Assembly: GCF_041248615.1 (NCBI RefSeq)
Contig: NZ_CP158426.1
Origin: Escherichia coli
GTDB taxonomy: Bacteria; Pseudomonadota; Gammaproteobacteria; Enterobacterales; Enterobacteriaceae
Length of the DNA stretch: 64,000 nucleotides
Direction: 5' to 3' (one strand)
Shown: one piece after another, positions 3,333 through 59,906 of the stretch
Position numbering within the stretch: the stretch's first letter is position 1
Layout of the letters: each line of letters opens with the position of its first letter
The notes under the pieces: model-generated
Seen by the model: the letters and a program-made list of their open reading frames with translations, nothing else
What the model was told of the DNA's origin: nothing
Databases searched by the model: none
Position numbers and translations under genes: made by a program

Positions 3333-5132
<1,800 letters not shown>

Positions 5133-9840: not shown

Positions 9841-9861
9841 AAAAATACCGTTCTCTTTATA

Positions 9862-9938
9862 AAGTAAAACCCCCGAACTGGTAAGGAACGGGGGTTTTAC
9901 TTTTTAACTTTAATTTTGTGCAGCACGCACCCTCAACA
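9862..9938 (-). ncRNA. ohsC: OhsC-like antitoxin sRNA of the shoB type I toxin-antitoxin pair (ends approximate)
   Basis: Minus-strand promoter TTGTAA-N18-CATAAT (CATAAT is the complement of 9945-9950) predicts a start near 9938. The first ~21 nt are complementary to 10166-10188 in the shoB leader. The transcript would end at the 9864-9900 hairpin, about 77 nt. Divergent arrangement as published for shoB/ohsC. Confidence 0.5.
9864..9905. terminator. bidirectional intrinsic terminator (acpS on plus strand, ohsC on minus strand)
   Basis: 12-bp stem GTAAAACCCCCG / CGGGGGTTTTAC (9864-9875 / 9889-9900), followed by TTTTT on the plus strand. An A/T-rich run flanks it on the other side. Confidence 0.75.
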
Positions 9939-10259
9939 AGAGCGATTATGGATCAGGGCGGTTATCTTTTACAAGCAACTTGCAATCTTTAGCATAAAAA
10001 CTCGAGCCTTTACGAAGAAAACAATATTGATGGAAAGATTAACGTGACCGCCAATTCGGAAGTACATTAAAATTGGCTTCGTTATTGGCGATTTTGCTGT
10101 GCTTTATACCATGCCACAGAATTCCCCCATTGAAACGAGTGGTGTCGTCAAAGCTCTGGTGTGGAGTGCAGCATGCACCCTCAATAACTCGCACGTTCAG
10201 TTTTGGGGAGATGTAAGGGCTAATCTGAACGGCTGCATTCCTTGTTTAAGGAAAAACGA

Positions 10260-56651: not shown

Positions 56652-56686
56652 CTTGTGCCCCGAACGTTGAATGAATTGTGGTTCTT

Positions 56687-57463
56687 ATGTCCGAAACAAA
56701 AAACGAACTTGAAGATCTGCTGGAAAAAGCAGCAACCGAACCGGCGCACCGCCCGGCCTTTTTCCGTACTCTACTGGAATCCACCGTCTGGGTGCCGGGT
56801 ACGGCGGCGCAGGGCGAGGCTGTGGTTGAAGATAGCGCGCTTGATTTACAGCACTGGGAAAAAGAAGACGGCACCAGCGTCATTCCTTTTTTTACCTCGT
56901 TAGAAGCACTTCAACAGGCGGTTGAAGACGAACAGGCATTTGTCGTAATGCCCGTTCGCACATTGTTTGAGATGACCCTTGGCGAAACGCTCTTCCTTAA
57001 TGCCAAACTGCCAACCGGTAAAGAATTTATGCCGCGTGAAATCAGTTTGTTGATTGGTGAAGAAGGAAATCCGCTGAGCAGCCAGGAAGTACTGGAGGGC
57101 GGTGAATCGCTGATATTATCGGAAGTCGCAGAGCCGCCAGCACAAATGATTGATTCACTCACCACCTTATTTAAAACTATTAAGCCGGTGAAGCGTGCTT
57201 TTATTTGTTCAATTAAAGAGAACGAAGAGGCACAGCCTAATTTACTTATTGGCATTGAAGCCGATGGTGATATCGAAGAAATTATTCAGGCGGCGGGAAG
57301 TGTAGCGACCGATACATTACCTGGCGATGAACCCATCGATATTTGTCAGGTGAAAAAAGGGGAAAAAGGAATTAGCCACTTTATTACCGAACATATTGTG
57401 CCATTCTATGAACGTCGCTGGGGTGGTTTTTTGCGTGACTTTAAACAGAACCGGATAATCTAA
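56687..57463 (+). CDS. sseB: SseB (enhanced serine sensitivity protein)
   Basis: ORF trimmed to MSETKNELEDLLEKAATEPAHRPAFF..., 258 aa. Confidence 0.9.
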   Translation: MSETKNELEDLLEKAATEPAHRPAFFRTLLESTVWVPGTAAQGEAVVEDSALDLQHWEKEDGTSVIPFFTSLEALQQAVEDEQAFVVMPVRTLFEMTLGETLFLNAKLPTGKEFMPREISLLIGEEGNPLSSQEVLEGGESLILSEVAEPPAQMIDSLTTLFKTIKPVKRAFICSIKENEEAQPNLLIGIEADGDIEEIIQAAGSVATDTLPGDEPIDICQVKKGEKGISHFITEHIVPFYERRWGGFLRDFKQNRII

Positions 57464-57466
57464 AAT

Positions 57467-57488
57467 ATGCCGCCCCAAAGGGCGGCAT
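57467..57488. terminator. bidirectional hairpin shared by sseB (plus strand) and the ryfA-like transcript (minus strand)
   Basis: ATGCCGCCC caaa GGGCGGCAT. On the minus strand it is followed by ATATTTTA. Confidence 0.7.
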
Positions 57489-57494
57489 TCGGGC

Positions 57495-57620
57495 TTACCT
57501 GCTGTTCTGAAGGTTGTTAACCACCAGTAAATTGTTGCCGGAGAGACTCCGGTTATTATTTACCTCGGTTAACAGCGCACCAGAAACAATAAGTACGATA
57601 CAAAAGCACCGTATCTTCAT
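57495..57620 (-). CDS. 41-codon hydrophobic small ORF inside ryfA (TimP-like type I toxin candidate)
   Basis: My own translation of the minus strand: MKIRCFCIVLIVSGALLTEVNNNRSLSGNNLLVVNNLQNSR, with the stop abutting the terminator. N-terminal signal/TM-like segment. The start is buried next to hairpin TGCGGTC...GACCGCA (57622-57643). Below the ORF-track cutoff. Confidence 0.5.
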   Translation of the reverse strand: MKIRCFCIVLIVSGALLTEVNNNRSLSGNNLLVVNNLQNSR

Positions 57621-57794
57621 TGTGCGGTCCATGCGAAGACCGCATCACGACAGCACCACTGGCGATATTGCCGCGATAGCAAGCGCTGTGAAACACCTGC
57701 ATTTACGGCCATGGAACATCCTTTCCTTAAGCCAGCGCCCGTTTGCGAGACGGCGGAAAGGGCCGGTGTCGATAATACGCTAAATAAACAATGA

Positions 57795-58927
57795 TTACTC
57801 TCTTTCGCTGTGTAAGTTCACAGAGATATTGCAATTACCTCCGGATAAGTAAGGGGAGATTGCACTATGCAAATGCAGCATCTGATGGTTGGCTATCCTA
57901 AGTACTACCAAACGGCCGATTATGCGTTGAGGCTTTCAGTGATGGCTGATACAGCAACAATGAGAATGAAGGCTCTGCACTTCTGGGATAAACACGGTAT
58001 TTCTGCAGCTTCTGAAGCCTTTGGCGTGTCCTGCCGCACGCTTTACTGGTGGCGTCAGTTACTGAACAAGGGAGGACCTGAGGGGCTAATCCCGCACAGT
58101 AAGGCACCTCTGGTGCGACGAAAAAAGCACTGGCATCCCGATGTGCTGAAAGAGATTCGACGGCTGCGGACAGAGCTGCCGAACCTCGGTAAAGAGCAGA
58201 TTTTTGTTCGCCTGAAGCCCTGGTGCGAACAGCGCTATCTGGCCTGTCCAAGTGTTTCCACCATCGGCAGAATGATCGCTGCCGCACACGATAAAATGCG
58301 AATGATACCTGTGCGTCTGGGCTCGCGGGGGAAGGCACTGCTTGTCAAAAAGCGGTCTGCCAAACCCCGCAGACCAAAGCACTACCGCCCGGTAAAGACA
58401 GGTGAGCTCATTGGGATGGACGCCATTGAGCTCAGAATGGGCGAACTGCGTCGCTATGTCATCACCATGATCGACGAATGCAGCAATTACGCGCTGGCGC
58501 TGGCTGTACCGTCGCTCAACAGTGATATCGTCAATCACTTCTTCAGCCGTGCAGCCCGGCTGTTCCCGGTCGGTATCAGTCAGATAATCACAGATAACGG
58601 AAAAGAGTTCCTGGGAAACTTCAACAAAACGCTGCAGGAAGCCGCTATCAAACACCTCTGGACCTATCCCTACACGCCAAAAATGAACGCTATCTGTGAA
58701 CGTTTTAACCGGACGTTAAGAGAGCAGTTTATTGAATTTAATGAGATTTTACTCTTTGAAGATCTGGCGCTATTTAATCAGAAGCTGGGGGAATATCTGG
58801 TACTGTATAACAGCAAAAGGCCCCATAAGGCGCTCGCACTAATGACGCCCGTGGAATATATTTTAAGAGAGAACAAAAATTGCAATATGTGGTGGACCCA
58901 TACATTCGCTTGACAAAAAGAGAGTTA
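57795..58927 (+). mobile_element. IS481-family insertion sequence (about 1.13 kb); boundaries provisional
   Basis: Single 348-aa rve/DDE transposase ORF ending 14 nt from the proposed right end. Imperfect terminal inverted repeats: TTACTCTCTTTcgcTGTgtAAG (left) versus the complement of CTTgACAaaAAAGAGAGTTA (right). No flanking direct repeat found. Confidence 0.5.
57867..58913 (+). CDS. IS481-family transposase (integrase-core DDE)
   Basis: 348 aa with SD GGGGAG 8 nt upstream. N-terminal HTH (ASEAFGVSCRTLYWWRQLL). DDE-type motifs GMDAIEL, ITDNGKEF and PYTPKMNAICERFNRTLREQF. Confidence 0.8.
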   Translation: MQMQHLMVGYPKYYQTADYALRLSVMADTATMRMKALHFWDKHGISAASEAFGVSCRTLYWWRQLLNKGGPEGLIPHSKAPLVRRKKHWHPDVLKEIRRLRTELPNLGKEQIFVRLKPWCEQRYLACPSVSTIGRMIAAAHDKMRMIPVRLGSRGKALLVKKRSAKPRRPKHYRPVKTGELIGMDAIELRMGELRRYVITMIDECSNYALALAVPSLNSDIVNHFFSRAARLFPVGISQIITDNGKEFLGNFNKTLQEAAIKHLWTYPYTPKMNAICERFNRTLREQFIEFNEILLFEDLALFNQKLGEYLVLYNSKRPHKALALMTPVEYILRENKNCNMWWTHTFA

Positions 58928-58944
58928 CTGGCGAGTATTGCTTT

Positions 58945-59046
58945 GCTGTGAAGCACCTGCGTTGCTCCGACAACACAAGTCAACCTGCTGGAAAGGCCGC
59001 GAACCAGACCAGCAATAAAAAACCGCCAAATTCGGCGGTTTTTTAT
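58945..59046 (+). ncRNA. candidate antitoxin sRNA (TimR/RyfB-like) for the ryfA toxin mRNA; hypothetical
   Basis: GCTGTGAAGCACCTGCGTT (58945-58963) is a near-copy of 57685-57703, so a plus-strand RNA would pair with the ryfA leader over 19 bp (2 G-U). Putative promoter TTGACA (58910-15)-N17-GAGTAT (58933-38). It would end at the terminator at 59015-59046. Confidence 0.35.
59015..59046. terminator. bidirectional terminator (sseA on minus strand; candidate sRNA on plus strand)
   Basis: AAAAAACCGCC aaattc GGCGGTTTTTT. Confidence 0.75.
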
Positions 59047-59060
59047 TGCCTGTAAAAAGC

Positions 59061-59906
59061 TTATTTCAATGGCTCAACCGGTAAATCTGCCCGTGCGCCC
59101 CATTCACTCCATGCGCCGTCGTACAGTTTCACGTTTGGCACATCCAGCGTCGCGAGTGCCAACAAAACCACGGCTGCCGTTACACCAGAACCGCAACTGA
59201 CGATAATAGGTTTGTCATAACTTACGCCGCGACCAAAAAATATCGCATCCAGTTCATCGGTCGTTTTTAGTTCGCCTTCACGTACCAGTTCTGTCCACGG
59301 AACGTTAAACGCGCCGGGAATATGTCCGCGACGTAAACCTGGGCGAGGTTCATCAACTTCTGCGTTAAAACGTGCAGCCGGGCGGGCATCAATAATTTGC
59401 GCCGTATTTTCATGGCTTGCCAATAACACATCGGTGACTTTCACCACGGCTTCAGGATTAAACGTGGCGTTAAACTCTCCTTCCGGCAGCTCTACTGCAC
59501 CTTCTTCTAACAGCAGATCATCGCGCTGCCAGCCTGCAAGTCCACCCCCCAGAATCGACACTTTCTCTACACCAAAGGTGCGCAGCATCCACCATGCTCG
59601 TGGGGCTGAGAAAAGATTACCTTCGTCATAGACAATCAGGTGCTTATCCTGGTTAACGCCTAATTCACGCATCGCCACGGCGAACGTTTCCGGGCGCGGC
59701 AGCATGTGCGGAAGCGGGGAAGTGTGATCAGAAAGCGCTTCGATATCAAAAAACACTGCGCCGGGAATATGTCCATTCAGATACTCCTGAGCAACGTTAC
59801 GATCTTCCTGTCCAGGCGACGCCATGCGGGCATCAATAATCTGAATTTCCGGGTCATCAATATGTTCGGCGAGCCAGTCGGCTCCTACAAACCATGTCGT
59901 GGACAT
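59061..59906 (-). CDS. sseA: 3-mercaptopyruvate sulfurtransferase
   Basis: ORF trimmed to MSTTWFVGADWLAEHIDDPEIQIIDARM..., 281 aa. Tandem rhodanese domains with active-site motif CGSGVTA. Confidence 0.95.
   Translation of the reverse strand: MSTTWFVGADWLAEHIDDPEIQIIDARMASPGQEDRNVAQEYLNGHIPGAVFFDIEALSDHTSPLPHMLPRPETFAVAMRELGVNQDKHLIVYDEGNLFSAPRAWWMLRTFGVEKVSILGGGLAGWQRDDLLLEEGAVELPEGEFNATFNPEAVVKVTDVLLASHENTAQIIDARPAARFNAEVDEPRPGLRRGHIPGAFNVPWTELVREGELKTTDELDAIFFGRGVSYDKPIIVSCGSGVTAAVVLLALATLDVPNVKLYDGAWSEWGARADLPVEPLK

Follow-up and report, generated by a model that had tools for sequence, protein, structure and literature searches.

A probable timR antitoxin RNA gene separated from the divergent toxin gene timP by an IS481-family element in Escherichia coli

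The timP/timR type I toxin-antitoxin module is known from Salmonella, in which the small RNA STnc2070, since renamed TimR, carries at its 5' end 18 nt of continuous complementarity to the 5'UTR of timP (PMC7667032). Compensatory mutations and cell-free translation demonstrated that Salmonella TimR represses translation by base pairing, the RNA was detected by Northern blot, and complementary, terminator-flanked sequences were present upstream of timP in every enterobacterium examined (PMC7667032). The Salmonella timP mRNA is unprocessed, stem-loop 4 keeps its Shine-Dalgarno sequence inaccessible and its translation requires a 7-bp pseudoknot formed by stem-loops 1 and 3; by binding to stem-loop 2 in the conformer that contains the pseudoknot, TimR destabilises this structure, and does so without masking the ribosome-binding site (PMC11228461). 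In E. coli, Northern blots have revealed TimR in strains CFT073 and CH138. Work in Shigella (2017) and Salmonella (2020 and 2024) had already made the system known, and the unit described below is a correct rediscovery of it.

In the 64-kb stretch of E. coli DNA analysed here (the window), the plus-strand unit of interest belongs to a cluster with the gene order pepB, sseB (plus strand, 56678-57463), ryfA/timP (minus strand), an insertion sequence (IS), timR (plus strand) and sseA (minus strand, from 59061). The 1.7-kb region 57400-59100 was 100% identical to the corresponding DNA of isolate 362 (NZ_OW967178.1). We consider it highly probable that the unit encodes TimR, which serves the timP/timR type I toxin-antitoxin module as its RNA antitoxin; its expression, translational repression and action on the pseudoknot in the window strain would be expected from the published work on orthologues. 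The original prediction of an antitoxin sRNA of about 100 nt, divergent from the toxin gene and acting in trans, matches the TimR/RyfB RNA published for the timP/ryfA locus. The features of the locus are collected in Table 1.

Table 1. Features of the timP/timR locus in the window (strand "." denotes a feature assigned to neither strand).
Feature	Position	Strand	Basis or remark
timP mRNA (ryfA), toxin transcript	57462..57766	-	Rfam RF00126
TimP ORF, 41-aa small toxic inner membrane protein	57495..57620	-	NCBIfam NF040796; RefSeq timP
TimR-binding site (predicted), stem-loop 2 of timP 5'UTR	57685..57703	-	mRNA positions 64-82 from 57766
IS481-family IS, 1096 bp	57809..58904	+	Comparison with empty-site SX4 and K-12
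IS transposase ORF, 348 aa	57867..58913	+	ORF list, sequence
timR promoter	58910..58938	+	-35 TTGACA 58910-58915, 17-nt spacer, -10 GAGTAT 58933-58938
TimR (RyfB/STnc2070) antitoxin sRNA, ~100 nt	58945..59046	+	Homology, covariance model, fold
TimR 5' seed, 19 nt, complementary to timP leader	58945..58963	+	Duplex, Salmonella +1
TimR stem-loop 1	58961..58974	+	Fold, compensatory pairs
TimR stem-loop 2, with near-invariant GGAAAGGCCGCGAAC	58986..59014	+	Conserved stem
timR intrinsic terminator, symmetric (A-run, hairpin, T-run)	59015..59046	.	Inverted repeat, RNA fold

The Salmonella TimR sequence (S. Typhimurium SL1344) was rebuilt from the published template oligonucleotides EHO-1419/1420, with the +1 position taken from EHO-1357. 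The window unit was identical to it at 79 of 96 aligned positions (82%), the differences being clustered in the seed; position 58946 corresponds to the start of the Salmonella RNA. The deletion oligonucleotide EHO-1349 contains the Salmonella timR upstream sequence, which has the same promoter layout. From its promoter boxes, the window transcript was predicted to start near 58945/58946, so the duplicated block indeed occupies the predicted 5' end of a unit of about 100 nt closed by a hairpin and T-run, as had been proposed. The predicted fold, with an energy of -34.9 kcal/mol (z = -4.0 against shuffled sequences), comprises a free 5' segment, a short hairpin, a second stem-loop and the terminator. 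The unit scored 103.6 bits with a TimR covariance model in which the window's own sequence had been included. The terminator is an inverted repeat with 19-nt arms that are 95% complementary; due to its symmetry and its position 15 nt beyond the sseA stop codon (59061, minus strand), it probably also terminates the convergent sseA gene and so serves both genes.

Two automatic searches missed these elements. A consensus promoter scan left the timR promoter unscored because its -10 hexamer matches the consensus at only three of six positions; this weak match is a caveat to the TimR reading. A simple terminator scan did not find the timR hairpin because its A/T arms extend the stem so far that the T-run becomes part of it. 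Both cases were judged to reflect limits of the scan rules and not to be evidence of absence.

The toxin gene was recognised with high scores, reaching 320.5 bits for ryfA (Rfam RF00126, gathering score 80) and 84.2 bits for the TimP ORF (NCBIfam NF040796 toxic_TimP, cut-off 45). Homology to the Salmonella oligonucleotide EHO-1224 places the timP +1 at about 57764, with a -10 box TATTAT at 57777-57772. [quoted passage not shown] The pseudoknot partners are kept in the window timP mRNA as CGCUGGC in stem-loop 1 and GCCAGUG in stem-loop 3, which, as read from the timP sequence, form seven pairs including one G-U. Because the TimR site falls in the same stem-loop and the pseudoknot partners are kept, we infer for the window module the pseudoknot mechanism of Salmonella, the only organism in which it was tested. 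A sigma-70 promoter of its own would drive timR, divergent from timP (ryfA), and the 19 unstructured nucleotides at the 5' end of the RNA would anneal to stem-loop 2 of the timP leader, some 65 nt before the start codon. Such pairing would destabilise the pseudoknot of stem-loops 1 and 3 needed for initiation, and no TimP would be made.

The intact and conserved TimP ORF (84 bits with the NCBIfam model, many Escherichia homologues) and the translation-control elements kept in the timP leader (320 bits with the Rfam model, pseudoknot partners) argue against a reading that we regard as improbable, namely that TimR is real but that the E. coli pair consists mainly of two regulatory sRNAs, with RyfA acting on other targets and TimR serving as its sponge or counter-regulator. 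This reading draws on a study of avian pathogenic E. coli (APEC), in which RyfA was treated as a regulatory RNA, deletion of timR alone had little phenotypic effect and the authors noted that a TimP peptide produced from ryfA is undemonstrated in E. coli. It also draws on S. dysenteriae, in which RyfB1 lowers the level of RyfA1 RNA and a reporter gave no protein (PMC5333039); that reporter, however, tested a different frame of 30 aa (PMC5333039). The regulatory-sRNA and toxin-antitoxin roles are mutually compatible.

The pairing of TimR with timP rests on two near-repeated blocks on the plus strand, GCTGTGAAaCACCTGCaTT at 57685-57703 and GCTGTGAAgCACCTGCgTT at 58945-58963, whose positions were found to be exact. 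A degenerate 19-nt pattern built on them matched twice in the 64 kb (0.03 matches expected from shuffles), both matches being the blocks themselves. An unbiased scan of the whole window for direct 19-mer near-repeats (at least 17/19 identity, at most 1.5 kb apart) revealed seven, compared with none in each of five shuffled sequences, and two of the seven were seeds of type I toxin-antitoxin systems: shoB/ohsC (9918/10166) and the timP/TimR block pair. The likeness to the ohsC/shoB architecture, to which the original prediction had pointed, thus has a real 18/19 near-repeat behind it. In shoB/ohsC, the repeat occupies 9918-9936 and 10166-10184 and its single difference is a C/T transition; OhsC itself was identified as Rfam RF02495 at 9861-9937 on the minus strand. 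The blocks of the timP/timR locus are 1260 bp apart because the 1096-bp IS element intervenes, and only about 160 bp separate them in empty-site strains.

A plus-strand RNA from the second block forms with the minus-strand ryfA mRNA 17 Watson-Crick and two G-U pairs without a mismatch, in agreement with the proposal that both A/G differences become wobbles, the A being on the timP side and the G on the sRNA side in each case. RNA-RNA interaction was predicted by an accessibility-corrected window scan. For TimR 1-19 and timP mRNA 64-82, the hybrid energy of -32.6 kcal/mol and the opening costs of +6.4 and +6.9 gave a net value of -19.3 kcal/mol at the predicted site; a version of the same site shifted by 4 nt reached -10.3, and every other combination of windows was at -6.6 or weaker. 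When the TimR seed was compared with both strands of the 64 kb, the timP site was the best non-self target (-35.9 kcal/mol against a background of -13.9 +/- 3.9). A duplex fold of full-length TimR with the timP mRNA gave z = -0.8, a value that is uninformative since the method ignores intramolecular structure.

A protein search with TimP returned almost only Escherichia and Shigella sequences, and related loci were therefore fetched through the neighbouring SseB, resulting in a sample of 80 syntenic loci with one genome per species. An intact timP was present in 13 of the 80 loci, each time with a timR homologue at the same position; no timP/timR module was found at the sseB site of Enterobacter, Klebsiella, Raoultella and others in this sample. 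Fifteen loci in which the promoter is kept (Escherichia, Citrobacter, Salmonella and Pseudocitrobacter) were aligned: the first five bases of the -35 box, TTGAC, never varied, the sixth was A or T, and the -10 box had the form GA(G/A/T)TAT. The alignment of 15 TimR homologues contained 26 consensus pairs, three of them with compensatory changes: two pairs of stem-loop 1 that change from G-C to A-U in type-B alleles and one pair in the terminator. Stem-loop 2 changed on one side only, to G-U.

The seed was the most variable part of TimR and fell into seven types over these four genera, a matching timP site being present in every lineage. Examples, written on the plus strand with the timP site first and the TimR seed second, are GTGAAACACC and GTGAAGCACC; GAGACGCGCT and GAGACGCGCT; GTGGGGTGTC and GTGGGGTGCC; GAGGTGCGCC and GAGGTGCGCC; ACGGTGTGCC and ACGGTGTGTC. 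Over the seven types, cognate duplexes had a mean energy of -34.7 kcal/mol versus -22.5 kcal/mol for non-cognate ones, and the cognate RNA was the best partner for 7/7 timP types and 6/7 TimR types. The intergenic DNA flanking seed and target differs between these lineages. The covariation of the two blocks that was anticipated across genomes is thus present, with seed and site changing together in seven lineage types. Judged on sequence, this covariation settles the case and constitutes the decisive evidence for selected pairing. A profile search with nhmmer additionally matched timP positions 3-85 weakly to the timR region (E ~0.1-0.3), which hints that timR may have arisen by partial duplication of the timP 5' end, a hint too weak to be claimed.

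The G-U pattern within the window had been read as a sign of selection. That the pairing is selected is borne out by the lineage covariation; the pattern on its own is a weak sign, consisting of two wobbles in one strain. According to our own estimate for two substitutions in one strain, the chance of both giving G-U pairs is about 0.1-0.25, and the pattern was dropped as standalone evidence, being insignificant within the window alone. Between lineages, a hand count of interior non-Watson-Crick positions gave about nine wobbles versus about three mismatches, an excess that is suggestive only. Selection on pairing is therefore argued here from the seed/target covariation between lineages, and the G-U argument is given no such weight.

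The sole peculiarity local to the window is the IS481-family insertion between the core promoters. The element is bordered by 5-bp target duplications TTCGC at 57804-57808 and 58905-58909, and its transposase scored 219 bits with NF033577 transpos_IS481 (cut-off 224) and contains Pfam rve and HTH domains. Its insertion point, position -36 relative to timR and about -44 relative to timP, falls precisely in the gap between the core promoters of the two genes, both of which remain intact; in the empty-site strains SX4 and K-12, the two -35 regions are about 10 bp apart. Because the IS replaces the DNA upstream of these points, promoter strength or shared regulation may be altered. The transposase frame runs past the end of the IS, to a TGA stop codon within the timR -35 hexamer. 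A scan for plus-strand terminators, which also missed that of TimR, predicted none from 58913 up to the TimR terminator, and hence read-through transposase transcripts would carry the whole TimR as a 3'UTR. That the IS has rewired the module rather than merely separated its genes, either by coupling the antitoxin supply to IS expression or through pairing of the transposase mRNA with timP mRNA, is nevertheless unlikely in our estimation. As TimR acts in trans, the module, viewed from its sequence, should still work despite the separation.

An identical IS/timR junction was found in 13 of 5426 complete E. coli genomes from diverse sources. The IS occurs in three locus backgrounds: in a single type-A module, upstream of the second timR copy of a two-copy locus, and in a locus that combines a K-12-type timP promoter with a timR-2-type gene and has a TTTGC duplication at either side. 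In the locus records of strains RM14723 (L088), IAL7255 (L089) and ETEC1748 (L090), it is located at 460-1555. These occurrences suggest that the divergent timP/timR promoter is an insertion hot spot for the IS or that the inserted form has spread by recombination.

The state of the interrupted locus bears on the view that the module is a disabled relic in the window strain, the IS having silenced or deregulated timR, timP or both and the complementarity being merely inherited. We hold this to be very improbable: both core promoters, the TimR body, the timP mRNA and its ORF are intact, an IS-free strain carries a timR segment with 100% identity to 58910-59046, and the junction persists in 13 genomes, three of which were aligned with the window and showed timR without decay. 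Speaking for the relic are the position of the IS (-36 for timR, about -44 for timP), which deprives both genes of their AT-rich upstream DNA, and the decay of the locus in relatives: C. werkmanii, C. braakii and Superficieibacter have lost timP, and S. enterica subsp. arizonae carries a deletion. The notion that no independent sRNA exists, the repeat being due to chance or a duplication remnant and the hairpin being only the sseA terminator, can point to the symmetric terminator 15 nt past the sseA stop and to the lack of an Rfam family and of annotation in the E. coli records examined, but is effectively refuted by a promoter conserved at the correct distance, an RNA body conserved with compensatory pairs, a seed and target that covary over seven types while the flanking intergenic DNA differs, and the experimental detection of orthologous RNAs.

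Several variants of the locus were encountered among relatives. K-12 and S. flexneri possess two timR copies, separated by a short leftover of a second timP 5' end with its promoter; the copies are located at 745-840 and ~1066-1143 in the K-12 TG1 record (L003) and at 3668-3763 and 3989-4088 in that of S. flexneri (L007). The timP-proximal copy of K-12 has a non-matching type-B seed (-23.3 kcal/mol with K-12 timP), and the distal one has a window-type seed that matches K-12 timP (-34.6 kcal/mol). A third kind of second timR copy, with a different 5' region (GACGAGATACACTTGCAGTAATAC) and without stem-loop 1, is present in E. ruysiae (L006, 3943-4029) and E. coli THO-008 (L086, 1212-1298); no matching timP site was found for it in the same locus.

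In S. enterica subsp. arizonae (L025, ~3500-3520), a deletion has its endpoints in the two 19-nt blocks and fuses the timP body to the TimR body, the first 60-odd nucleotides of timP and both promoters being gone; the seed repeat is therefore also a recombination substrate. Orphan timR genes from which timP has been deleted are located at 3395-3489 in C. werkmanii (L013), 3385-3478 in C. braakii (L011) and 3377-3472 in Superficieibacter (L074), and score 84-110 bits with the TimR model. At these loci, the antitoxin, as recognised by homology, is kept after toxin loss. The C. braakii copy shows decay in the -35 box and in stem-loop 1.

TimR has no Rfam family, and no Rfam match to the window unit reaches its gathering score. 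A timR homologue is present in 5425 of 5426 complete E. coli RefSeq genomes, and no annotated feature was found under any of the 30 timR matches listed; in every E. coli locus record examined, timP was annotated and timR was not. The timPR module, its 5'-seed pairing, its enterobacterial conservation and the pseudoknot mechanism are already published, and the present analysis adds little new biology. A reading made without database searches recovered TimR correctly, and the practical value lies in annotation, a task to which the TimR covariance model constructed in this analysis could be put. Small leads on the evolution of type I modules come from the IS insertion, the presence of two copies in K-12 and the variants that lost the toxin.

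Among the known systems, OhsC/shoB, located in the same window, is likewise a type I pair of divergent, non-overlapping genes with a short trans-complementary block. The two systems have no sequence relationship, and shoB mRNA needs processing, in contrast to the purely structural switch of timP mRNA. The antitoxins IstR-1/tisB, OrzO/zorO and AgrB/dinQ are also divergent sRNAs with seeds of 18-23 nt that pair far upstream of the toxin ribosome-binding site, but these systems involve stand-by sites or processed mRNAs, and RNase III cleavage of the duplex is typical for them. Assignment of TimR to Rfam AgrB (RF02891) was rejected at 32.7 bits against a gathering score of 40 (58966-59047, plus strand), the match resting largely on a generic stem and terminator. 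Rfam IS128 (RF00125) was also rejected, as only model positions 150-209 matched, on the minus strand of the terminator, scoring 35.9 bits where the gathering score is 80. The 3' end of IS128 corresponds to 59003-59060 on the minus strand of the TimR terminator, and this older family of predicted sRNAs seems, by its consensus, to coincide in part with the opposite strand of the first timR copy in K-12. A cis-antisense antitoxin of the Sok/hok type was dismissed since the genes are divergent without overlap and the complementarity is limited to the 19-nt block.

Closer relatives are RyfB1 and RyfB2 of S. dysenteriae, transcripts of about 100 nt that RNA-seq showed to run divergently from each copy of ryfA and that are complementary to the variable region of RyfA at 16-17 of 18 nt (PMC5333039). 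The window holds a single module instead of sibling copies; in the Shigella study, RyfA was taken to be a non-coding regulator. In S. flexneri and K-12, it is the second timR copy whose seed agrees with that of the window, and by this resemblance we infer a RyfB2/RyfA2-like type.

The closest counterpart is TimR/timP of Salmonella (PMC7667032, PMC11228461). The seed differs, being GCUGUGAAGCACCUGCGUU in the window and CUACGGUGUGCCUGCGUU in Salmonella, with the target changed to match; the window duplex contains two G-U pairs, 5 nt are inserted after stem-loop 1 and a 1.1-kb IS lies between the genes. Shared by both are the slot between sseB and sseA, the divergent arrangement, the promoter layout, 82% identity, the architecture of stem-loops and terminator, the timP pseudoknot partners and a 5'-terminal seed of 18-19 nt directed to stem-loop 2, more than 60 nt upstream of the ribosome-binding site.
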